Made by a program: the position numbers and the translations under genes. The notes under the pieces were generated by a model. That model had not been told where the DNA came from. It did no database searches and saw nothing but the letters and a program-made list of their open reading frames with translations. This document shows, in pieces, positions 2 to 42,419 of a stretch of 52,338 nucleotides of DNA; within the stretch, counting starts at the first letter, position 1; each line of letters starts with the position of its first letter. Origin of the DNA: Tubiluchus corallicola (Eukaryota > Animalia > Priapulida); contig JAQGDQ010002415.1 in assembly GCA_030141605.1 (NCBI GenBank), positions 6,581 to 58,918 on the forward strand, written 5' to 3'.

Positions 2-2845
2 AGCCCCGCCCATTATATACCCAAACATTTCCCAACCTTTAGCATCATTAGCCTCTCCTATCTTGTAGCCACTATATCCTCCTATTATTGCTCCTACAAC
101 GGCTGCTGCTAAAAATATCCACTCCCCATCAGGATCTACAAACATCATAGGGCTATTGCCCATAGCTTGGTAAGGTGAGTGCATCTGCAAAGCAGGATCT
201 ACTGCAAACCACCTTCCCAAATTAGCATCGTACTGTCGTGCGTGAAAATCGTGCAAGTTAATATTAAAATACTCCAAATGCTCCTTGCCCGTGTAGAGGT
301 ATTGGCTTTTTACATTATCAGGTAGTTCATTTCTACTTAGTTTCTCTATCGTTTGTCCATAAGGGTAGTAAGCCGTTTCTTGTAGCACCTCGCCCTTGTT
401 GTCAGCAACTACTCGTGTATGCCCCAAGTGGTCGGTGAGTAACACTGCCTTTGTGTCCTCTTCCTCACCCTTCAAGGTATAGCCTAAAGGGTTACTCACA
501 AGTACAAGCGTATCATTAATATACAGATACGCACCTTGATAATCGTATTTTAGCAAGAGGCTATCGTTTTTGTTAAATATCTCACGTCTTAAAAGTGAGC
601 CATCCGCTATGTAGGTGTTTACTATCTTTCCTTTGCCTACTACCTCCATTGTATCAGGTAGGTTGATGTCGTTGTAGCTAATACGTAGTCCCTTGTAGCT
701 ATCCTCCACCAAGTTACCCAACTCATCATAAGTATAAGTGCCTAGCACTTCTTCGGGTGTTTGGTCTTTTTCATCGTGCGTTCTGCGTAGGTTCTCTTGT
801 ATGGCAAGGGTGTCTTTTAGGTCTATAATGCCGTCACCATCCGCATCCATATAGCTAAACTGTGGGGTACTGGTAATAGTTGTGTAGGGCTTCCACTCCG
901 TGCCTTGCTCATCTTCGTCCCTTGGGGTGGCTGTGCTTCCATAGTGCAAGCCCAATGGCAATATGTCGGCTGGCTCTACTAAGCCGCTATTGTCCATATC
1001 ACCCGGATATACTGTTATCTTTTGCAGGCTTTTACGGTGTAGAGTGGTGAGTTGGTTGCCCGTGTATTCATACTCCAAATCATCCAAGTCGCCATACACT
1101 TCATTACGTAGATGTCCCTTGCGGTGTAGGGTAGTAATGTTCCCGTGTTTGTCGTAAGAGTAAGCTGTGTTGTAAGTGTTCTCCTCTTTTGTGTCTTGGT
1201 AGTAGATAGCTCTTGTCAGTTGGTTAGCATCGTCATAAGAGAAGGCATAGCCTGATAGGGGTGTGTTTTTGGTCTTCCACTCCATAGCTGTAATGTTGCC
1301 GTTGTACATAGGGGTGTTGCTCATATACTCGTGAGGCTCGTCATACTCTATCCTTTCGTAAAAAAGCTGTTCGTTTTTGTCGTTGTTAGTTTCTATTTGG
1401 GTAAGGCGGTAGTGGAAGTCGTAATGGTAGTTTGTTCTTATTTGTCCTTCATACAGTCGTTCATAGCTTTTGTTGCCTTTTTCATCGTAGCGGTAATAGG
1501 CTATTTCATAGGTGTTTTTGTCTCCCTGCTCTTGGTAGTGGATGGATTTCAACATGTCGTTGTGGTAGTATTGGTAATCCTTACGTGCAAAGTGTTGCTT
1601 GTCAAAGTCTAAGAAGTTTTTGTAGGTAAATAGTTGTCTTACTCTGCCATCGAAATGGTAGTTGGTAAATACTGCGTCTATTCCGCCTATGTTGTTGGAG
1701 GAGAAGGATTGTACTACTCTGTTGTATTTGTCGTAGTATATTACGCTTTCTATCCATTGGTCGGTGCCAAGTATGCGGGTTCGTGTGCCTGTTACTTGTG
1801 TCTTTACGTTGTGATAGGGCTTGCCAAGGGGTTCGTAGGGTGGTGCTGACTGTGCAAAGGGGAAGTCGTAGTCGTCGTAGTGGGTTTCTGATAGGGGTAT
1901 CTTTTTTCCGTCTTTTTTTATGCCTGTGGCTATTACGCGGCTGTAGCGGTCGTAGTCTATGTAGGAGGTGTTGCCTTCTGTGTCTTCTTCTTCTATCAGT
2001 CTGTCTAAGTGGTCGTAGCTAAGGTGTATGGTACCTGCTTGTGGTATGTGTTTGCGGATAAGGCGTCCTTTTTTGTCGTGGATGAATTGATAGACGTAAT
2101 GGTGATTGTTGATATCTCCTTTGGATAGTGGGGGGAGTATGGCGGTAAGGTTGCCATAGTGAAAGTCGTAGTAGTAGAGTGTGGTTAGGGTTTCTTTGTT
2201 TATCTGGCTTTCTCTTTTGAATAGTTGACCTTTGTATGAGGTGTATGTGGTGTGTTGTATGCCTTGAGGGTCGGTGGTACTGACTATGCTTATGTAGCCG
2301 GGGGGGTATTTTTTGTCTTCGTATTTTTCGGTGAATGCGTCATATTCTTTGTGTAGGAAGATGTCGGTGTTGGCGTAGCGTTCAATTTTGGTAGTGTGGT
2401 TTGTGCCTATTTGGTATTTCTGTCCAAAGCCACCTTGTTCTATTACTTGACCGCGTGGGTTGAATATGCTTTGTGCGCTGGGTATGTCTGTGTGGGCTTG
2501 GTTTAGTATGTTTTCCCAGTTGTGTAGGTAGTCGCCTTTGATGTTGAGTTGCATTGGCATATAGCTAAAGGGTTGTCTGCCTGCTATGTCGTATTTATGA
2601 AATTCTATGTGGTCGTTTTGGTAGATGGAGGCGTTCAGGTGGTTGGTTTGTAGGGGGCGGTCGGCTCCATCGGTGTAGATAATGGTGGTTGAGGCTGCTG
2701 CTGGGTTGGTGGTATTGCTTAGCTCATAGGCACTCATCCCTGATACTTTTGCTCGTTTTATGCGCACGTAGTTTTGGTCTCGGCTCTGCGGGTACAGAAC
2801 GCTGCACAAGTGCAGAAAGGCCAAGAGTAAAGCAATGGGTCTCAT
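2..2845 (-). CDS. DUF6443-type Rhs repeat-associated core toxin, 3' end beyond window edge; internal dockerin-like insert
   Basis: Translated by hand from ATG at 2845, no stop seen before the window edge, which explains its absence from the ORF track. Signal peptide MRPIALLLAFLHLCSVLYPQ; DUF6443-like IYTDGADRPLQ and ILPP; YD repeats; YNGNITAMEW; Rhs core LTDHLGHTRV..YYPYG..YLYTGKE..HARQYDANLGRWFAVDP..SPY..GNSPMMFVDPDGE. Confidence 0.93.
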   Translation of the reverse strand, partial: MRPIALLLAFLHLCSVLYPQSRDQNYVRIKRAKVSGMSAYELSNTTNPAAASTTIIYTDGADRPLQTNHLNASIYQNDHIEFHKYDIAGRQPFSYMPMQLNIKGDYLHNWENILNQAHTDIPSAQSIFNPRGQVIEQGGFGQKYQIGTNHTTKIERYANTDIFLHKEYDAFTEKYEDKKYPPGYISIVSTTDPQGIQHTTYTSYKGQLFKRESQINKETLTTLYYYDFHYGNLTAILPPLSKGDINNHHYVYQFIHDKKGRLIRKHIPQAGTIHLSYDHLDRLIEEEDTEGNTSYIDYDRYSRVIATGIKKDGKKIPLSETHYDDYDFPFAQSAPPYEPLGKPYHNVKTQVTGTRTRILGTDQWIESVIYYDKYNRVVQSFSSNNIGGIDAVFTNYHFDGRVRQLFTYKNFLDFDKQHFARKDYQYYHNDMLKSIHYQEQGDKNTYEIAYYRYDEKGNKSYERLYEGQIRTNYHYDFHYRLTQIETNNDKNEQLFYERIEYDEPHEYMSNTPMYNGNITAMEWKTKNTPLSGYAFSYDDANQLTRAIYYQDTKEENTYNTAYSYDKHGNITTLHRKGHLRNEVYGDLDDLEYEYTGNQLTTLHRKSLQKITVYPGDMDNSGLVEPADILPLGLHYGSTATPRDEDEQGTEWKPYTTITSTPQFSYMDADGDGIIDLKDTLAIQENLRRTHDEKDQTPEEVLGTYTYDELGNLVEDSYKGLRISYNDINLPDTMEVVGKGKIVNTYIADGSLLRREIFNKNDSLLLKYDYQGAYLYINDTLVLVSNPLGYTLKGEEEDTKAVLLTDHLGHTRVVADNKGEVLQETAYYPYGQTIEKLSRNELPDNVKSQYLYTGKEHLEYFNINLHDFHARQYDANLGRWFAVDPALQMHSPYQAMGNSPMMFVDPDGEWIFLAAAVVGAIIGGYSGYKIGEANDAKGWEMFGYIMGGA

Positions 2846-2861: not shown

Positions 2862-5123
2862 TTATTTAACTCTCATTATAAAGGCTAATACGTAGTAGGG
2901 AGGTATAATATCAAAATTATCAGTAGTTACTTTGTCTGCTGGCGATTTTAACCCGTCCTCTCCTCCATTGCTTACTCTACCACTAAAAGAACTATTCGGG
3001 TGGGTGTGTCTATCTTCATTATTCTCAGATGTAGTAGTAGCATCTCTGGTTTCATGAACTCCTCTATCAGAGCTCCTGCTACCTCCTGTCTTTCTATTAG
3101 ATGGAGTGGATTCATAAGTATGTGTATGACTCCCTGAAGAGGTTATATGTATACTTGCGTCATTGCCTCTTACAGAATGATGATGTTTAGGAATATGATT
3201 CTTAGATAATCTAAATGTAGCTGTAGAGCTACTGCTGCCTCCTTCTGCATTCACATTGTTATAATCACCACTGGCAGCATCATACGCCACAATAAACCTA
3301 CCACTTAAGTTGGGGGTCGTTATGAGTGAACCATTAATATCCGTGTCTGTTCTACCATCACACAAAGCCCACCCATCAGGTATAGTATTAGGGTCTCCGC
3401 TCCACATTATAATGCCTCCTATGGGTATGGTGCCGTAGCCTACAAATTGTCCTTGTGTTTCAATATTGTCTTCTGCTATTATTTTGCCTTCTGTGGCAAT
3501 ATCATTGGCAGTTTGTATGCTTTCTACAAAAAGGGTATCTACTTCTACATTGGAAGATATTACTCCATCTACCCTTACTACTTCACTTACTATTAATGTA
3601 TCAGCAATAATGCTACTTGTTTCTAAGTTTTCTACTTTCACATAGTTTTGTTCAAAGTCGCCCTCTATGAGTGTGTTGGTTCCACTGCCTATCATTAGTT
3701 TGTTGCTTTCGTTATTTAGGTTCTGCCCTACTTTGTTACCTATTACTATGTTGTTGTAGCCATTGTTCCCTTGTGCTGCTTTGTCTCCTATGTATATATT
3801 GCTACCACCTGTTGTATTGCTTTTGCCTGCTTCGTTGCCAATAAACACATTGCCACTAGCCGACAAGCTATTTAGCCCTGCACGGTAGCCTATAGCTATG
3901 TTGTCATTGTTGGAAGTAGCATCTGGGTTTATACCTTGCAGTGCCTCTGTGCCAATAACTACATTTCGCTCTCCACTGCTTTTTTCGGCTGCTTTGCTAC
4001 CTATCACCACACTATAATTGTTTGCTCCTTCTCGACTAGCGTATTTTCCTATGACTACTGCACCTGTGCTGTTTTTTGCTTTGGATGCTTTACTACCTAC
4101 AATTACATTATCAGAGGATAGTGTATATTTCCCTGCCTCGTCGCCTACAATTACATTGTGTGAGCCAGCGGAATTTAATTGCCCTGCCTCTGTACCTATC
4201 ATTACATTAGAGGTAGAGGCTTGTGTGGTGTTTTGTCCTGCTCTTTTACCTACAAAGGTGTTGCGTTCGCCTTGTTCTCCACTGTTAATCTTTTCTGAGC
4301 CTATCAATACGTTGGTAGTATCTATCTCTATACTGCCTGCTATCATATCTTCTAAGGCTTGATTGTTGAGACGGTAAGGCTCGTTCCACGCTCCATAAGT
4401 AGTATCGCCATTTATATCTATTTCTATAAGGCGCAACTTTGCCCATAGGTCGCCTTCCTTTCGTTCTAAGGTCCAATTAGAAGTAGCCGCACTATCAGGA
4501 GCATACATCTTTTCAACTGAGCAAGGGTCTATGGTTACCTCCAATTTACCATCCACTATTTGCAGTGTATTACCCAATACTACGCCTCCTCTGGTGCTAT
4601 GGCTAGCAATAGGTAGTTCATAATAGTTGGCATTGTTTTCTACCGAAAGTAGTTTGGCCAACAAACTATCAGCAAAGTTATTGTCCGAGTATGTAGCACG
4701 ATGCTCTATGCCTAGTAGCTTTTGATAGAGGCTATCTATAAAGTTATGCTCAGTGTAGTTCAGACTGTCTAACTTGATTTTAAGAACGTAAGTAAAATTT
4801 TCTTCGGAGTACTTAATACTGTCTAACTTTTCTTTGTGAGAAGTTGTGAAGTTGTGGTCGGTTTGTGAGGTGGCTCTTAGGTAGATAACACCTTCGCCTT
4901 GTTGCCCTTGATAGATTTCTAATCCATCCTCGCCTTCTGCTTTTATCTCATAATTGTAGGTAGCATTGATAAGGTCTTTAAAATCCTGTCCATTGGGTTT
5001 ACTACCATCTTGAAACTTGGAGTGTAATTCACTGGGGGTTTTTCTCTCTATTTGAGAATAAGCAGTGGTGTTAAGGAACACAAAAGCAATAGCAACTGCA
5101 AAAAATTTCACTGTATTTTTCAT
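2862..5123 (-). CDS. Secreted phage/eCIS-like tail fibre protein (YadA-like head repeats, tail collar domain, HxH tip)
   Basis: Signal peptide MKNTVKFFAVAIAFVFLNTTAYSQ (ATG 5123); NF..KLxxI repeats; YELPIASHSTRGGV; many N(V/T)xIG repeats; collar IPIGGIIMWSG..IPDGWALCDG..TPNLSGRFI; HxH motifs; terminal PPYYVLAFIMR. Confidence 0.85.
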   Translation of the reverse strand: MKNTVKFFAVAIAFVFLNTTAYSQIERKTPSELHSKFQDGSKPNGQDFKDLINATYNYEIKAEGEDGLEIYQGQQGEGVIYLRATSQTDHNFTTSHKEKLDSIKYSEENFTYVLKIKLDSLNYTEHNFIDSLYQKLLGIEHRATYSDNNFADSLLAKLLSVENNANYYELPIASHSTRGGVVLGNTLQIVDGKLEVTIDPCSVEKMYAPDSAATSNWTLERKEGDLWAKLRLIEIDINGDTTYGAWNEPYRLNNQALEDMIAGSIEIDTTNVLIGSEKINSGEQGERNTFVGKRAGQNTTQASTSNVMIGTEAGQLNSAGSHNVIVGDEAGKYTLSSDNVIVGSKASKAKNSTGAVVIGKYASREGANNYSVVIGSKAAEKSSGERNVVIGTEALQGINPDATSNNDNIAIGYRAGLNSLSASGNVFIGNEAGKSNTTGGSNIYIGDKAAQGNNGYNNIVIGNKVGQNLNNESNKLMIGSGTNTLIEGDFEQNYVKVENLETSSIIADTLIVSEVVRVDGVISSNVEVDTLFVESIQTANDIATEGKIIAEDNIETQGQFVGYGTIPIGGIIMWSGDPNTIPDGWALCDGRTDTDINGSLITTPNLSGRFIVAYDAASGDYNNVNAEGGSSSSTATFRLSKNHIPKHHHSVRGNDASIHITSSGSHTHTYESTPSNRKTGGSRSSDRGVHETRDATTTSENNEDRHTHPNSSFSGRVSNGGEDGLKSPADKVTTDNFDIIPPYYVLAFIMRVK

Positions 5124-5168
5124 TATCAAATTCTGTTTTATTGGTGTATATTTATATTTTTTTCATTT

Positions 5169-8100
5169 TCAATTCTCTGTTACATATCTTATATGAAAAG
5201 TAGTGGCAGTATCGTTTCTAATATACATTTGTCCTATTCCTAACTCTTCTATGTCCAAAGGGTCGTAGGAGGCTTTGTAGTTATACTGATATTGTTCCAG
5301 AGCGTCTTCATCTTCGTTTCCTATGTTCGAAAGTCTACCAAAATCGTCATAACCATATTTTATAGTCTGCTCTTGTGAAGAAACTTCTTGTTGCAGTTGT
5401 AGTAGGTTGGTGTATGCATAATTAGAAACATACTTACCTGCATCTACAGAGTGTGTTTTGGGTAGATTACTCGAGGTGTAAGAATAGGAAATAGGCACGG
5501 CATCTTTACCAGTATATTTCAGTATGTTGCCTTTGTTGTCGTATTGGTTGAAGGTGGTTTGTAACTCATAATTATCTGCAAGGGTATTGTAAGTTTCTAT
5601 GCTTTCTACAATGTAGTCAGGGTCTTCATTGCTTCCTAATACATAGTTGATTTTTTGTCCTGATAGGAGTTTCCCGTTTTTTCTTATCTCTTGCTGTACT
5701 GGGGCAATAATATGCTTGTCCTCAAAGTATTGTTTTATAGGCTGATTGCTCTGATGCACATAAGTAATAGAAGTTTCTGTGGTCTCTACATTATCACTGG
5801 CAATTACTTTTACAGGTAGGTTTTTGTATTTACTGTATTTTTCATATTCATAGGTGGTAGTGGTAGTGATAGGCTGCCTTGCACTTTCGGCATAATCTTC
5901 GCGAATAGTCCCTTCCAAAGTTTTAGTAACTGCAGCTATATCATAGGTGCTATGACGTAAAAGATTATCATTTTTATCTATCTGTACATTGTAGCCTCCA
6001 ACAGAGTTGCTCCATTTTAAACTATAATTGTTAGAAGTTTTATTGAGTAAGTTATCTTTATTGTCATAAGTTTCTTGTTGATAGAGATAAGTCCTATACA
6101 CATCTCTGTCTGTAATGGTAGAAAAAAGCAGGTAGTAAGAACTAGAAGGATCTTGGCCTGCTATTACATCAGGTTTATTGTCTTCATCTTTGGCTGTTTT
6201 AAAGTAAGAAATAGTTTTGCCTTGTTCTTTGTTTGTCTGCATTACCTTGCCAAAACCTACTATACCCCCGCCTGTGGCTAACTGTTCGCCTCCGCCCTTA
6301 GGATAAAGTAAATAATGATAATAGTCCCAAAAACGTCCAACCTCATACTTTCTATTTCTGTTGAAAGGTATAATACCTTCCTCATAGTTATAAGTTATTT
6401 CTTCCATTACCTCTCCTTTTTCGTCATCCGTAGCTTTTATATTTTTTATAAAACAACCATATTCACTAGTATAGTAGTCGAAGGTTTTGTGCATTCCTGT
6501 AGGGTAGGTAATGGAGGAAAGCAAACCATTCTCTATATTGTTAAGCGAAGGGGCATAATTATATTCTTCGTACTCGTTTATACCCTCGAATTTTACTCTT
6601 AACATTTCCTTTAACGATGATGAATATTCTATATTCCGTTCTTCATTTTTTTCATTGCTGTCTATATCTAGCTCACTGGGGTATGTAAAGTTGTAAAAAG
6701 TAGATTTAGGACTTGTAAAATCTACATAGTAACCATAAAAATTCTGTTTGTAAGAAAGTCTATAAGGTAGTTTACTAGGGTTAATGTAATTAAATTTAAA
6801 AGGATTGATATTATCTCCATAGATGTCTTTCTCCTCTATTTCTGTAAGGAACATCCTTTGTGTAGTACCTGCTTGTTCTATAAAGAAACTACCACTGTGC
6901 CATGCATTTGTTTTAAAACGAAATGCAGGCGAGGAGGTAGTAACAGAATTATGATAATTATAAGTAAATGTATAGCTTTTAATAAAATCATCATCTTTCG
7001 TTTTTATACGTATTTCTCTAAGAAAACTACCTACCTCATCTATCATATCTTTTCTGTTTTCTACTGTAAAGAATTCTACTTTGTGGTTGCCTCCTTCTAC
7101 CTCTTGCAACATAGGGGTATGGGCTGTAACCAAACTTTTAGCAATTCCTATTTCATTACGAGGAACTGGGGACTCATATCTGTAAAACTTATTATCCTCT
7201 ATTTTGGGATAAGAATTCTGAATACAAACACCTGACAGCCTACTGCCTTGATAATACCGACTTGTTTGTTTTTTATAAGAAAAGGTTACTTTATCATTAA
7301 AAGCAGGTTGTATTATCTCTATTAAATGCCAAGAGGACCTATAACTATACGATTGACTACTATTGATTACACGTTTTTCCTGCAAATCCAAAGAATAAGC
7401 GGGAATTTTCTTGATTACTATCCCCAGAAAATTTCTCTTCCAAATTTCCTCAAACTTTGAAGTATAACGTACAATTTCACTTGTATTTTCTATTTCCATC
7501 TCTTCTATGGCTTCTTCTTCATAGCCAAATCTGTAAATAGTGCCATCTTCGGCAGTAATAGTAAAGCCATTAATGGTTGAAGAAGAAGCATCCATCTCTA
7601 TTTTCAGGTTGTTATCGTTGGCAAGAATATTAATTCTGTTAGAAGCGGCTCTTCTGCTAATAGTGAATTTACCGTTTAAGTTGCCACAAGAAAAATAAAA
7701 TATATCAGGGTGGAGATCGTTATCTTTCATTTCTTCGACTGATGCCCAATTATCCCAATAGCCTATCTTTTCTTTTGTTTCATTTTTACTATCTACTACA
7801 CCGTCATTATTATCTTCAATAATAGATTTTACTTGGGTTGTTTTCTCATCGGGGTAGCCTTTTACTACACGAGTAATCACTCCGCTTGCTTGTAAGTTCC
7901 ATCCCATACCTACCCAAGAAGCTAGGTCATCTACTCTTACTCCGTTGGAATGATACACCAAGCTAATGGGCACGGATAGGTGGGTACTTTTCAGGGTGTA
8001 CAAAGGAATGCCTACATTAATAGCTCCTGTGTAAAGGCTAGAGGCGGTAGAGGCAGAACGTATCAGCCCTGCTACTGTGGGTGAGGGTACAGTAACCAAA

Positions 8101-8342
8101 CTACTACTACCAGACAAGGCTCCGAACTCGTCACTGCTCATTGAAGTAGGAACACCTTTATGTAAGGATTTTAACATCAAATGACTGGTAGTATCTTCTT
8201 CTGCTGCTGTATCTTCCTGTTCAGCTGGAAGATAGGGCTGGGCAGAAGTCAAGCTAAAAGAGAAAAGAAAAAAGAAAAAAACACTCTTTCCTCTCCCATA
8301 GATACAAAATAAAGACAAAAATATAAATGCAAGTGTTTTCAT
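5169..8342 (-). CDS. YD/Rhs-repeat shell protein without toxin core (TcB-like partner of DUF6443 Rhs proteins)
   Basis: PSPTVAGL..SLYTGAINVGIPLYTL..VPISLVYHSNGVRVDDLASWVGMGWNLQASGVITRVVKGYPDE, PDIFYFS, LSSITYPTG, YDNKGNI, YGYDDFGRL; no DPxG core motif. Confidence 0.85.
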   Translation of the reverse strand: MKTLAFIFLSLFCIYGRGKSVFFFFLFSFSLTSAQPYLPAEQEDTAAEEDTTSHLMLKSLHKGVPTSMSSDEFGALSGSSSLVTVPSPTVAGLIRSASTASSLYTGAINVGIPLYTLKSTHLSVPISLVYHSNGVRVDDLASWVGMGWNLQASGVITRVVKGYPDEKTTQVKSIIEDNNDGVVDSKNETKEKIGYWDNWASVEEMKDNDLHPDIFYFSCGNLNGKFTISRRAASNRINILANDNNLKIEMDASSSTINGFTITAEDGTIYRFGYEEEAIEEMEIENTSEIVRYTSKFEEIWKRNFLGIVIKKIPAYSLDLQEKRVINSSQSYSYRSSWHLIEIIQPAFNDKVTFSYKKQTSRYYQGSRLSGVCIQNSYPKIEDNKFYRYESPVPRNEIGIAKSLVTAHTPMLQEVEGGNHKVEFFTVENRKDMIDEVGSFLREIRIKTKDDDFIKSYTFTYNYHNSVTTSSPAFRFKTNAWHSGSFFIEQAGTTQRMFLTEIEEKDIYGDNINPFKFNYINPSKLPYRLSYKQNFYGYYVDFTSPKSTFYNFTYPSELDIDSNEKNEERNIEYSSSLKEMLRVKFEGINEYEEYNYAPSLNNIENGLLSSITYPTGMHKTFDYYTSEYGCFIKNIKATDDEKGEVMEEITYNYEEGIIPFNRNRKYEVGRFWDYYHYLLYPKGGGEQLATGGGIVGFGKVMQTNKEQGKTISYFKTAKDEDNKPDVIAGQDPSSSYYLLFSTITDRDVYRTYLYQQETYDNKDNLLNKTSNNYSLKWSNSVGGYNVQIDKNDNLLRHSTYDIAAVTKTLEGTIREDYAESARQPITTTTTYEYEKYSKYKNLPVKVIASDNVETTETSITYVHQSNQPIKQYFEDKHIIAPVQQEIRKNGKLLSGQKINYVLGSNEDPDYIVESIETYNTLADNYELQTTFNQYDNKGNILKYTGKDAVPISYSYTSSNLPKTHSVDAGKYVSNYAYTNLLQLQQEVSSQEQTIKYGYDDFGRLSNIGNEDEDALEQYQYNYKASYDPLDIEELGIGQMYIRNDTATTFHIRYVTEN

Positions 8343-8355
8343 TTGTTAAAACCTC

Positions 8356-9130
8356 TTAGTTTAAGATAATTTTCTTACTGACAATAAAATCATTATAGAC
8401 CGTTTGTATCAAATAAATACCTTTGGGAAGAAAAGATAAATCAAAAGTAGCTATATCTTTTTTGGGTACGGTGGTTCGCACCACAGACCCCTCCTCTCAT
8501 TGCTCTAACTTCTACTATCTCTTTTTCTACCCCGTATTCATATTTGATATTTACAATACCATTTGTAGGGTTAGGATAAAGTATAAATTGATATAGCTCA
8601 GTGTTTTTCGAAAGGTGTTTCAAAGAATATTCGCCTATGTAAATAGTATCGGAAGTAGAAAGAAGAGGAATGGCTTCTCCTTTGTGATTGTTTGCCATAT
8701 AAGGATGAGCAGACACAGAGATAAAGTCCTTGGTTAAACCCTCTTTTATCTTTACAAAAAGAGAGAGTACATTTTCTTTACTGTCTAAAAAAAAGTTCTC
8801 ATTCAAACCTGTAACAGCATAACGCAGCAGCCCTTCACTTTGATTTTGTTGATATAGGTCAATATAATCCTTGCCTCGCTCTCCAAAAGTGCTGCCTGTG
8901 GAAAGTGCAATAGAATTAGTGTCCAAGTCCTGTGGGTTATAACGAATGTCAAAAGCTATACCATAAAGAAGTTCTATATTATCTTGAGGGTAGAAATTAA
9001 AAACCACCACCTCATCCAAACGCTCACGAGATAAAACAGGAGTAGGAGTTTCTACTTTTAGCAGCTCTTGCGAGAAAACAGAACAATTTAATAGAAAGAA
9101 AGATATTAAATTTAAGCAAAATAATCTCAT
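8356..9130 (-). CDS. Cohesin-like domain protein with T9SS type-A C-terminal domain, frameshifted at about 8488-8491 (pseudogene or sequencing error)
   Basis: Likely start MRLFCLNLISFFLLNCSVFSQ (ATG 9130); LYGIAFDIRYNP..GLLRYAVT cohesin-like beta-sandwich; CTD begins FILYPNPTNGIVNI and continues in the shifted frame as ..FDLSFLPKGIYLIQTVYNDFIVSKKIILN* (stop 8356-8358). Confidence 0.75.
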
Positions 9131-9394
9131 AAGACTAAAAGATTTTAAGAAATTAGGTGTAAAATATCTTAACTTAAAAAACACAAGTTTACATAAAAAA
9201 ACTCTTTTGTACAAAAAAATATATTAAGAATTAGCAATATATTCTAAGTAGTTTAAAACCATCCTTAAATTCAGTTACTGCTAAGTACAATACAAGTTTT
9301 AGAAACTTTCATCTTTTAGTTTTTGGCAATAAAAATAGGCAATGAATGAAAAATTAAATATTAGTATACCATTACCTTATTTTGTTATAAAGAC

Positions 9395-25348: not shown

Positions 25349-26533
25349 ATGAAAGCTAACATTAACATATTGTCATTATTGCTTCTTCTAATTATATTTC
25401 AATTCTGTAAAACAGAAAAAAAACAGACCGAAATATTTTATAAAGCACAAGAAGTATTGAAGCCATCTATATTAGCAAATAGCAAATGGGCATTACAACA
25501 AGAGCCAATAACCATTACTGCCGAATACTGTGAAAGAAGTGCTGGGGGGAAACACGATTTCTATTCCGAAGGCGATTATTGGTGGCCTGACCCCAAAAAT
25601 CCGAATGCCCCTTACATCCAAAGAGATGGACAAACAAATCCTAACAACTTCGTCGCCCATAGATTAGCGATGATAAGATTAAGCCGTATTGTTGGCACTT
25701 TAACTTCTGCCTATATTATTAATAAGGATAAAACATACATAGAGCATATTGTAAAGCACTTGGATGCGTGGTTTGTAAACCCCAACACAAGAATGAACCC
25801 CCATCTACTTTATGCACAAGCAATTACAGGACGTGTAACAGGAAGGGGCATTGGTATCATAGATACTATACACTTAATGGAAGTAGCTCAGAGTATCCTA
25901 ATTCTCAAAAAATTAAACCTACTTGATGAAAACTTTTCTAACAATGTTCAAAAGTGGTTTAAACAGTATTTAAACTGGATAACTACCCACGAATACGGTA
26001 TAGCAGAACGCGAAAAAGAAAACAACCACGGAACTTGTTGGGCAATGCAAGTAGCATCTTTTGCTAAATTAACAGACGACAAAGAAACCCTCCTACTCTG
26101 TAAAGAACGATATAAAAACATCCTTCTACCTGACCAAATGGCAGAAAATGGCAGTTTCCCAGAAGAATTAGAAAGAACCAAACCCTATGGATATTCCTTA
26201 TTTAACTTGGATGCAATGGCAACCGTTTGCCAAATACTATCGACAGAAGATGATAACCTATGGCAATACACACTATCTGATGGAAGAAACATTAAAAAAG
26301 GAGTAGAGTTTTTAACCCCATTTGTAGAAGACAAAAGTAAATGGAAATTAAAACCCGATGTGATGTATTGGGAAAACTGGCCTGTGGCACAGCCTTATCT
26401 TATTTTTGCGGCAAACGCCTTTAACAATGAAAAACACTATGAGATATGGAAAGCCTTAGAACACAACCCCCAAGTGCAAGAGGTCATAAGAAATTTGCCT
26501 ATAAGAAACCCTTTAATATGGCTATATAAATAA
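25349..26533 (+). CDS. Alginate_lyase-domain polysaccharide lyase (PL38-like), copy 1
   Basis: HDFYSEGDYWWP, RDGQTNP, TRMNPHLLYAQ, GRGIGIIDT, NNHGT, ELERTKPYGYSLFNL. Confidence 0.87.
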   Translation: MKANINILSLLLLLIIFQFCKTEKKQTEIFYKAQEVLKPSILANSKWALQQEPITITAEYCERSAGGKHDFYSEGDYWWPDPKNPNAPYIQRDGQTNPNNFVAHRLAMIRLSRIVGTLTSAYIINKDKTYIEHIVKHLDAWFVNPNTRMNPHLLYAQAITGRVTGRGIGIIDTIHLMEVAQSILILKKLNLLDENFSNNVQKWFKQYLNWITTHEYGIAEREKENNHGTCWAMQVASFAKLTDDKETLLLCKERYKNILLPDQMAENGSFPEELERTKPYGYSLFNLDAMATVCQILSTEDDNLWQYTLSDGRNIKKGVEFLTPFVEDKSKWKLKPDVMYWENWPVAQPYLIFAANAFNNEKHYEIWKALEHNPQVQEVIRNLPIRNPLIWLYK

Positions 26534-40118: not shown

Positions 40119-42350
40119 TTATAAGAAAAGTATTTTAGTTACAGCTTTTTCTTGTCCATCGTGGTCTACCACATAGATAAGGTATATTCCAGAAGTTATC
40201 CTTTGTCCACTTTGCTTGCACCCATTCCACGTAGCCTGTCCACCAAGCGAAACAGTCTCATAAACAAGGTTGCCATTAATATTTGTAATTTTCACATTGG
40301 TGTTTTCCTTCAAGCCAGTTATAGTTATTAGCCCTTCATAGTTTTCCCTTACGGGGTTAGGAAAAGCAAATATATCGTTATAACTAGATTTCGGCTCAAT
40401 GGCTTCTCCTCTGTATGAGGTTATACCATATGCTGTGGCTATGAATATTTCCCCAGTATTAGAATCTATAGCAATATCTTTAATATCATTAGAGGGCAAT
40501 GGGCTATTTTGTATATTAAAGTGTTCTAACTGTTTTTTTCCATCACCTGACATAAGGTATACGCCTGAATTTCTCGTGCCAAAACACTTTCTATCAGCAC
40601 CATCTATAGCTATGGAGCTTACTATCTCCATTTCCAAAAGATAGCCAAATGTTCCATCATCATTTGACACAGATACCTTTTCTGCATAAGTGCCTCCTAA
40701 GGCTAACATCTCATAGGGGTGAAAATAGGTTAGCACTCCATTTTCTGTACCAAGCCATAAAATACCCTTTTTGTCCTGTTGCAAAGAGTAGACCTTGTTA
40801 GTCAAAACACCTCCCCCCTCTCCTCTTACTTTAGTCCTAATATATTCATCATCCGATTCTGTTTGCAAGGTAGCCCTATCATTAAATATAAATAATTCGT
40901 CCCCATCATTTAATACTATCCATTTATCGTCATTGGCAGTATTTATCATTCTCCCAAAACTATCATTATTGTTCAAAATATTATAATTATAGGCATACCA
41001 TTGCTTGTTCGGAGTTTTTATTCCTATAGGAGTTGCACTATTAGAGTTTGTTACCCACAAATTGCCGTCCGTATCATAGGTCATACTACCTACCTGCAAC
41101 ATTCCATTGATAGATGGCTCTAAGGGGGTATTAGTTTCATCCCACCTTGTTTTTGTCTGGTTATTTTGCAACTCTAAAATACTGGTTTTGGCTGAAATAT
41201 ATAAATCATCGTTTTGGGGCAAAATATCTACTATATTACTTATTTCTGGATATTGGTAATCAGTCCATTGTTCGTTTTCAAAAATCGAAAATATATTGTT
41301 ATTATTCGATATTACATATATCCTATCATCATAATATTTCAAATTTGCAGTACTATGCCGAGCAGGTGCATTGGGCTGTACAAATTGGGGCGTATTATCA
41401 AGCACTGATAGCTTTATCAATCCCTGCACACTATCAGCAATCCAAACAAACTCAGTATCATTCTGCTTGGCATCGACAGGTACTCCCTCGTAGGTACTCT
41501 TATAGATAACCCTATCATTAGCATCTATCAGCAACACTATATCATCCGCACAAACAATAAGATTTTCCACACCCGTTTCTATGGCTTTTACACTATTATA
41601 TATAGTAGTTGAAGTAGTCCAAGTGTTGTTTTGATAAATATAAACAGTATCCTTATCACCTACTACTCCATTAGCGTACACTTTATTATTAAAACAGGTA
41701 ACTATATTAAAAGTATCATTGGGATTTGGTATTGCAATATCTTTTTTCCACTCGTTGAAATCAGCCAAATTAGAATTGTTTATACTACCCACATAAATAC
41801 CTTCGCTGGTAGCTGCATAAATATTTTTATCAACAGAGCAATAAGCAATATCAAATAGTTGTAGAGCATTGTCTTCTTGGGTAAAATAATAGGTATCCTT
41901 TACCTCGCTCCTTTCCAAATCTAACAAAACTATTCCAAAATTAAAAGCCACATATACCACTCCTTCTATATATACAACCGTTTGAGGTTTTACTTCTTTT
42001 ATATTACTTAATACAATATCAGGAATATTATCTATTGTTTTATCTGTAACAACATCTATATTACCATTCTCATACACTACTATCAAAACATCCGAAGAGG
42101 CAATGTATTTTACCACCTCTATTTTATGCTCTGTTAAACCCTCTACTTTTGATAGAGTATTAATAGTATTATCAACAACATTGTAGTACAGCAAACCTCC
42201 TTCTGCCAAATAATATATTTTATTTCTGCCCACTTCTATTTGCTTCCCCTCATCATAATTAAAATGATTTCGCCATTCCTTCACTCCTATTTGCGAAAAA
42301 ACAATAGCTGACAACAACAGTAATCCTACAAGTAATAAGCTCCTTTTCAC
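40119..42350 (-). CDS. porZ: PorZ-like T9SS beta-propeller protein with CTD
   Basis: Probable GTG start at 42350 giving a signal peptide; WRNHF, TLSKVEGL, YENGNID, IAIDGADRK, NSPLPSNDI, FAFPNPVRENYEGLITITGL..NVKIT..GGQATWNG. Confidence 0.85.
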   Translation of the reverse strand: MKRSLLLVGLLLLSAIVFSQIGVKEWRNHFNYDEGKQIEVGRNKIYYLAEGGLLYYNVVDNTINTLSKVEGLTEHKIEVVKYIASSDVLIVVYENGNIDVVTDKTIDNIPDIVLSNIKEVKPQTVVYIEGVVYVAFNFGIVLLDLERSEVKDTYYFTQEDNALQLFDIAYCSVDKNIYAATSEGIYVGSINNSNLADFNEWKKDIAIPNPNDTFNIVTCFNNKVYANGVVGDKDTVYIYQNNTWTTSTTIYNSVKAIETGVENLIVCADDIVLLIDANDRVIYKSTYEGVPVDAKQNDTEFVWIADSVQGLIKLSVLDNTPQFVQPNAPARHSTANLKYYDDRIYVISNNNNIFSIFENEQWTDYQYPEISNIVDILPQNDDLYISAKTSILELQNNQTKTRWDETNTPLEPSINGMLQVGSMTYDTDGNLWVTNSNSATPIGIKTPNKQWYAYNYNILNNNDSFGRMINTANDDKWIVLNDGDELFIFNDRATLQTESDDEYIRTKVRGEGGGVLTNKVYSLQQDKKGILWLGTENGVLTYFHPYEMLALGGTYAEKVSVSNDDGTFGYLLEMEIVSSIAIDGADRKCFGTRNSGVYLMSGDGKKQLEHFNIQNSPLPSNDIKDIAIDSNTGEIFIATAYGITSYRGEAIEPKSSYNDIFAFPNPVRENYEGLITITGLKENTNVKITNINGNLVYETVSLGGQATWNGCKQSGQRITSGIYLIYVVDHDGQEKAVTKILFL

Positions 42351-42381
42351 TTCAATTAGTGTTTCATATATAAATAACATA

Positions 42382-42419
42382 GGGGATATATCCTCCCTCT
42401 TCACTTAGGACGTATCCCC
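42382..42419 (-). terminator. GC-rich hairpin between rdgB and porZ
   Basis: GGGGATATATCCT / AGGACGTATCCCC inverted repeat, 11 of 13 positions complementary. Confidence 0.45.

Follow-up and report, generated by a model that had tools for sequence, protein, structure and literature searches.

At its start the window, that is, the whole stretch of 52,338 nucleotides that was analysed, holds an operon of four genes on the minus strand. The first of them (8357..9130) codes for a cohesin-like domain that stands alone (about 8627-9070) and is followed by a type A T9SS CTD, the second (5169..8342; 1057 aa) for the YD-repeat N-terminal half of an Rhs shell, which ends in a GIG-x-M motif (5184..5243) resembling the motif in which eCIS baseplate genes end, the third (2862..5129; 755 aa) for a tail-fibre-like protein with an eCIS fibre-anchor-like motif (about 4932-5051) and a C-terminal phage collar domain, and the fourth (2..2845; 948 aa, running off the window edge) for the C-terminal half of a DUF6443-Rhs protein. 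The latter comprises DUF6443 (residues 42-153), YD repeats, the Rhs core (residues 826-907) and a DPxG-type cleavage motif, here DPDG, and is predicted from its sequence to be a bacterial competition toxin of the polymorphic, Rhs type. The two Rhs halves, fused in relatives, are separate genes in the window with the fibre gene between them. As read by eye, Sec signals appear to be present on all four operon proteins, those of the Rhs C-terminal half and of the fibre being likely signal peptides, and the cohesin protein alone among the four bears a CTD. There is no glycoside hydrolase in the operon, and neither sheath, tube and baseplate genes nor other export genes were seen in the operons carrying the insert described in the following.

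Within the wall of the DUF6443-Rhs protein sits a dockerin-type insert of 84 aa (residues 609-692; 770..1021, minus strand). The first-pass annotation had described it as about 80 aa placed in an Rhs loop, and the residues it quoted are indeed present in the Rhs ORF. In the window, 100 aa separate the two flanking Rhs strands, versus a median of 23 aa (quartiles 23-24) in the 179 homologues in which this spacer could be measured, out of a set of 266 from which 87 were dropped where an anchor was not found; the module thus stands in place of an Rhs loop of about 23 aa, and the insertion amounts to about 77 aa. A spacer of 98-106 aa with the same module occurs in 8/179 measurable homologues, and two incomplete protein sequences (P0003, Labilibaculum euxinus; P0127, Marinifilum fragile) start at or within the module. 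The insertion is real, common to a small family and located at the same site in all its members. It is also rare, as the insert with both Rhs flanks was found in 2/401 genomes sampled at the level of the order and in 1/401 sampled at the level of the phylum, each count including the centre genome, in comparison to 22/401 sampled genomes matched by the module alone. Of 42 loci retrieved from metagenomes with the segment of the window itself, 0 have the insert in an Rhs protein, and a word-indexed search with the insert region yielded no match among 193 candidates, the relatives having come from an exhaustive search. In a dockerin tree, on which the window occupies a long branch, one insertion and two insertions fit alike (p-AU 0.39). 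For the architecture of Rhs shells, these observations mean that a wall loop tolerates a folded domain of 80 aa.

Two 12-residue loops with ligands of D/N type lie in the insert, and a helix comes after each; the loops start at residues 616 and 667 and hence 51 residues apart. In the first predicted Ca-binding loop (965..1000, minus strand) positions 1, 3, 5, 9 and 12 are D, D, S, E and D, and in the second (812..847, minus strand) they are all D; D occupies both position 1 and position 12 in 8/8 aligned Rhs inserts. When the Rhs protein of the window was shuffled 20,000 times, one such loop arose in 14 of the shuffles and a pair 30-70 residues apart in none. With an alignment of 60 modules, eight of which belong to Rhs proteins and 52 to others, AlphaFold2 gave a model of the insert with a pLDDT of 97.1 and a pTM of 0.85, in which three helices (at 17-25, 53-58 and 68-76) make up the two loop-helix units and the short middle helix of a dockerin. 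In a Foldseek search with this model the first 13 ranks among the matches listed are filled by dockerin-containing entries, with 2Y3N_B at the top (prob 0.99, E 0.085, TM 0.55/0.73, rmsd 2.3), and no match at E<=0.001 was obtained. 2Y3N_B is also the best PDB match of the 60-module family profile (E 1.4e-6), narrowly before calmodulins. An identity as calmodulin or another EF-hand protein was rejected, since these matches span single loops and dockerins rank first in the fold search. Pfam Dockerin_1 is matched at E<=0.01 by 55/60 family members, the window copy not being among them and scoring 15.8 bits, below the curated cut-off for PF00404 of 22.9. A shallow model of the insert together with its flanks was mediocre (pLDDT 67) and gave no Foldseek match. 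Taken together, the dockerin fold that had been surmised from the letters alone is borne out: the insert is of dockerin type by fold and homology, while scoring below the curated cut-off, and is predicted to bind Ca and, putatively, a cohesin.

The cohesin gene is frameshifted near 8492, so that the second half of its CTD lies in another frame and ends at 8357, and the in-frame part comprises a weak Pfam cohesin match and half a CTD. However, the break falls in a homopolymer run, and a contig of run X1 spanning it has no substitutions, two extra letters in the homopolymer and the CTD in frame; therefore, the frameshift is likely an assembly error and the gene likely intact, the X1 evidence being one contig that possibly comes from the window's own source sample. 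The homology of the domain to cohesins was established in two steps, leading from the window and operon family to the domain that follows the module in non-Rhs proteins, and from there to the cohesins of PDB and Pfam. In the first step, HHalign with this following domain gave 95.7% (E 1e-8) for the operon cohesin family and 95.0% for the window protein alone. In the second, the profile of the following domain had five matches in PDB, all of them cohesins (E 0.0015-0.22), with 2Y3N_A and 1TYJ as the best, and 11/35 of its members match Pfam cohesins. Searched directly in PDB, the profile of the operon cohesin family matched no cohesin; the window protein stays below the Pfam PF00963 curated cut-off (13.5 vs 24.1 bits), and a word-indexed search with the cohesin found no match among 70 candidates. 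The CTD of the cohesin gene is above the cut-off at two relatives' loci, L006 and L007. With a signal peptide (by eye), a C-terminal CTD and a host that has a T9SS (SprA was found in 5/5 hosts, and PorZ in the window), the protein fits a type A T9SS substrate.

The first-pass annotation had stated that modules of this kind usually share one polypeptide with a cohesin-like domain and a T9SS CTD. Such an order, i.e., the module, a domain of cohesin length and a CTD, is found in 36/62 non-Rhs modules, from other bacteria, against a short segment and then a CTD in 14/62 and other arrangements in 12/62. This architecture in cis is thus confirmed and, as the annotation had proposed, is split here, with the dockerin in the toxin and cohesin plus CTD in a separate gene.

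The same operon of cohesin-CTD, fibre and YD-Rhs with insert and variable tips recurs in Marinifilaceae, including the named isolates Marinifilum sp. D737 and Ancylomarina sp. DW003. A genome scan placed the insert between Rhs flanks at 8 loci of 78 kept, and a family search added genome G092. In five genomes (G001, G002, G009, G010 and G092) the cohesin-CTD gene is followed by the fibre gene and then by a 2,300-2,400-aa fusion of the YD and DUF6443-Rhs halves, and in another one (G069) a contig ends within the operon, leaving the cohesin gene, the fibre gene and the beginning of the Rhs gene. The gene set is also preserved in the window, where identity is down to about 21% for the cohesin and 35% for Rhs, and the window is the one distant witness of the operon. 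Amongst 97 Marinifilaceae genomes, DUF6443 was found in 31, the insert in 6, the cohesin in 6 and both in 5, whereas a dockerin or cohesin match was found at none of the 60 insert-less Rhs loci (0/19 family, 0/23 class and 0/18 metagenome loci, after a filter had dropped 4/27 class loci and 1/19 metagenome loci). The proposed co-variation of insert and cohesin gene hence holds (p = 2e-4, Fisher's exact test, 31 DUF6443-positive genomes), with the proviso that the Marinifilaceae genomes concerned share one operon inherited whole and that the counts are not independent events. In addition, in four of five genomes checked (G001, G002, G010 and G092) there is one clear dockerin and one cohesin match each, both in the operon, G092 having one extra marginal dockerin match (E 9e-4). 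Homologues with the insert and no cohesin partner had been named beforehand as what would speak against a pairing. Such a case was encountered in part: a MAG from outside the Marinifilaceae (G004, completeness not given) has a full 2391-aa Rhs protein with the insert, and neither cohesin nor fibre was found in it; it is the one real counter-case. G003 yielded only fragments, three of them with the insert, which are orphan cassettes or lie on short contigs, and a cohesin was not found in this genome. The arrangement of dockerin-Rhs plus cohesin is rare.

With respect to the toxin part of the Rhs protein, the relatives' tips show a median identity of 19% over the last 120 aa versus 64% for the core (45 pairs) and are 263-339 aa long in 9/10 relatives, and small genes and orphan tip cassettes lie downstream at three of the relatives' loci (L005, L007 and L008). 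In the window the variable tip runs past the edge, with alternative tip ends near 9, 121 and 140. No known toxin family was found in the 12 tips or proteins scanned. In an alignment with solved Rhs shells, the flanks of the insert reach middling Z scores of 5.2-6.4.

The tail-fibre-like protein, in turn, links the operon to extracellular contractile injection systems (eCIS); neither the fibre gene nor its putative docking motif had been noticed in the first-pass annotation. A profile of its first 45 mature residues matched in PDB only the tail fibre 9QGO, AfpX13 and All3316 (E 0.026-0.73), all three of them proteins of contractile injection, and it also matched a gene that in an eCIS-like locus of genome G031 comes immediately after that of a Baseplate_J protein (E 5e-6), with matching genes in 32/401 sampled genomes. 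The fibre thus has the N-terminal anchor motif of eCIS tail fibres, and its N-terminus fits the eBAP anchor domains described in the available text of PMC12923769. The fibre gene does not follow a baseplate gene within an eCIS locus, its neighbours being the cohesin and YD/Rhs genes. The pattern G-I-G-x-x-x-hydrophobic-x-x-x-F occurs in the last 90 aa of 12/20 genes upstream of such fibres, 10/30 loci not being scoreable, versus 4/1137 background ORFs, and at the YD/DUF6443 junction it was found in 6/6 insert fusions versus 0/46 control loci; these enrichments are optimistic, as the pattern was drawn up after examples had been seen, including locus L202. The YD gene of the window ends in a longer form of the motif, which exceeds that of the relatives by four residues. 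Searched against PDB, the profile of the junction motif gave nothing meaningful, and it missed the baseplate end at L202; the resemblance to baseplate genes is one of the short pattern. The GIG-x-M peptide may serve as the docking site of the fibre.

A complex of the window's dockerin and cohesin was modelled with ESMFold2, which gave a median of 0.54 over three runs versus 0.00 for three controls, a weak pass. Contacts agree by at least 96% between the runs, with a pLDDT of 78 for the partner and of 82-83 for the cohesin. The mark was reached by 51/78 solved and 2/108 mismatched pairs, but scores of at most 0.60 are found in 5/78 solved pairs and in all 4 passing mismatches. Of note, solved look-alike complexes exist (2Y3N), and the score, obtained without custom alignments, may reflect memory. 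The model raises the odds of binding only a little.

The observations that bear on a pairing in trans are the homology and fold of the dockerin, the homology of the cohesin, the CTD found on the cohesin alone, the conserved operon, the variable tips and the T9SS of the hosts. On these grounds we consider it probable that the dockerin of the Rhs toxin binds the operon's cohesin, whether the two proteins leave the cell together or meet only outside. The reading that we favour, though its chances may fall slightly short of even, is that the cohesin lends the untagged toxin its T9SS tag, so that the Rhs protein would be exported as a passenger and then displayed on the surface. The C-terminus of Rhs proteins is a cleaved, swappable toxin tip, and therefore the Rhs protein cannot also carry a CTD; the unit of dockerin, cohesin and CTD known in cis appears to have been split here, supplying the tag non-covalently. 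All four operon proteins would pass into the periplasm by Sec, where the two Rhs halves would close around the tip and the dockerin, on the outer face of the shell, would be folded by Ca; the cohesin-CTD protein would then grip the dockerin, and the complex would cross the SprA translocon. Many type A CTD proteins stay attached to the surface, and the cohesin might likewise remain there, while the fibre, docked on the GIG-x-M peptide, would aim the particle at target cells. This reading assumes that SprA would let through, as a passenger, a shell that is folded and measures about 250 kDa. A far-reaching version of this reading sees in the operon a new toxin particle, in which an Rhs shell is hitched by its dockerin to a T9SS-tagged cohesin and mounts a phage-like fibre by means of an eCIS baseplate peptide. 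We regard this as an attractive but doubtful proposition; if it were true, T9SS would carry a CTD-less passenger complex, and a tail fibre would aim an Rhs protein without a contractile machine.

Alternatively, the cohesin might be exported alone and serve as an anchored socket, the Rhs protein leaving the cell by vesicles, lysis or another system and meeting the cohesin outside, in the manner of anchoring scaffoldins. All evidence for the pairing of dockerin and cohesin fits this scenario equally well, Rhs proteins of this family may use other export routes, insert-less relatives are often found behind genes which by eye resemble type II secretion or pilin genes, and the Chlorobium pair Cag_2037/2038 has been proposed to be such a tether in the accessible part of 10.64898/2026.03.19.712371. 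However, the insert operons were seen without any other export gene, cotranscribed partners would likely encounter each other already in the periplasm, and T9SS is described in the available text of PMC9251779 as moving folded, very large proteins, so that we hold a meeting outside the cell to be rather unlikely, if still the closest competitor to passenger export.

The scenarios of a mere passenger domain and of another ligand fit less well than either export with a borrowed tag or an anchored socket. It would be improbable, in our opinion, that the insert is just a Ca-stabilised passenger or relic, accompanied by the cohesin gene only for the reason that the whole operon moves together. Genomes G004 and G003 with no cohesin detected, the weak score of the complex and the rarity of the insert (2/401 and 1/401 genomes, see above) would all be in line with such a relic, but the ligand residues and both partners have been kept across about 80% cohesin divergence, the ancestors in cis pair the same two domains, and in four genomes the operon holds the only clear dockerin-cohesin pair. 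We attach very little probability to the idea that the dockerin has another target, e.g., cohesins on T9SS proteins of target cells, or that, from within the shell, it serves as a Ca switch releasing the tip. Receptors of the former kind do exist, as dockerin-cohesin proteins in cis are common in Bacteroidota and 22/401 genomes match the module; this would nevertheless leave the operon's own cohesin unexplained, and against an internal switch it can be argued that tips of 263-339 aa (9/10 relatives) would likely fill the lumen.

The nearest known systems include the type II cohesin-dockerin pair from Bacteroides cellulosolvens (2Y3N) and anchoring scaffoldins, 2Y3N being the best match of the insert by both profile and fold. 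They differ from the pair described here in that our dockerin is internal to an Rhs loop with its Ca-binding loops starting 51 residues apart, and in that our cohesin carries a T9SS CTD within an operon devoid of glycoside hydrolases. Related as well are the dockerin-cohesin-CTD units in cis of Bacteroidota, Balneolota, Calditrichota and KSB1 (loci L009-L078), which belong to the same module family at 29-44% identity and the cohesin of which is homologous to that of the window; there, both domains reside in one chain (36/62), whereas here they are encoded by separate genes. For this cis unit no description was found in the literature.

CTD-less toxins with variable tips lying beside CTD-bearing genes are known from the TANFOR proteins (PMC7073777) and from the Rhs proteins of Apibacter (PMC8125069), and the available text of both papers puts forward the hypothesis that CTD-less polymorphic toxins of Bacteroidota are exported by T9SS. 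In that text no coupling device is named, whereas here a plug-and-socket pair can be recognised. At other DUF6443 loci, unrelated CTD genes of 370-760 aa were found upstream in 0/19, 5/23 and 2/18 cases. The fibre shares its N-terminal anchor with the eCIS tail fibres bearing eBAP1/2 anchor domains, as far as these are covered by the part of PMC12923769 at hand, but here it likely has a Sec signal; the term 'Rhs' occurs 0 times in the main text of that paper as available to us. Clostridial ScaO/ScaP scaffoldins combine Rhs-like modules with those of cohesin and dockerin (PMC6780208, in part), and cohesin or dockerin domains have been reported in PT-TG toxins (PMC13483458, in part). Both are systems of other bacteria, with separate modules in a single chain; in the portions of these two sources that were available, neither system has, unlike the one described here, a dockerin in an Rhs wall together with a T9SS-tagged cohesin in trans. 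Cohesin-dockerin tethers outside cellulosomes have been proposed in the accessible part of 10.64898/2026.03.19.712371. A dockerin inserted in an Rhs protein was not found described in the freely accessible main texts searched. The parts are thus each of a known kind, and it is their combination that appears to be new. The operon offers a concrete, small and testable coupling for the T9SS export of CTD-less toxins, by which cohesin-dockerin pairs, in use in cellulosomes and adhesins, would also serve the delivery of toxins.

By comparison with contigs from the sequencing runs X1 and X2, the Rhs C-half gene, including its dockerin-type insert (window 185-2838), has an about threefold higher depth than the fibre and YD genes (3638-7837), with contig depths of 38 versus 10.8 in X1 and of 14.8 versus 4.6-8.3 in X2, the two runs representing one sample and contig depth not being equivalent to copy number. 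In addition, contigs continue differently at positions 9, 121 and 140 in the C-half gene, and a joint leads from 2853 to 195. Taken together, the depth excess, the alternative continuations and the joint hint at several copies of the C-half gene, or at strains with different tips, within this one sample.

At the start codon region of the same gene (window 2843), the contigs of both runs carry two additional letters. Just upstream of the start of the cohesin gene, at 9194-9199, contigs end loosely at both sides and there is a local spike in depth; possibly, a short repeated element resides there, and the site is bridged by an X1 contig. Further along, a large polysaccharide utilisation region was recognised by eye at 9465-40016; besides a LacI-like regulator, it holds two gene pairs that are SusC/SusD-like, genes resembling lyases and hydrolases, and a near-duplicate gene pair at 25349 and 34016.

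With respect to export, a PorZ homologue at 40119-42404 shows that the host of the window has a T9SS. Many pairs of YD and DUF6443-Rhs genes lacking the dockerin module have, as read by eye, type II secretion- or pilin-like gene clusters directly before or beside them (loci L111, L112, L114, L118, L119, L120, L122, L128 and L175), which suggests a different export route for this insert-less branch. In other DUF6443 loci (L177, L178, L182, L195 and L197) an unrelated CTD protein of 510-570 aa is encoded upstream and might be an alternative T9SS adaptor. At L110 (G054:C1, about 3852000-3858000), at least six short fibre-like genes in a row, with chaperone-type tails, again read by eye, precede an insert-less Rhs pair.

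Outside Rhs proteins, the combination dockerin-cohesin-CTD, a description of which was not found in the literature searched, is a widespread C-terminal unit in Bacteroidota, Balneolota, Calditrichota, KSB1 and Cloacimonadota (loci L009-L078), with 14 of the 62 modules classified there showing the variant dockerin-short segment-CTD.
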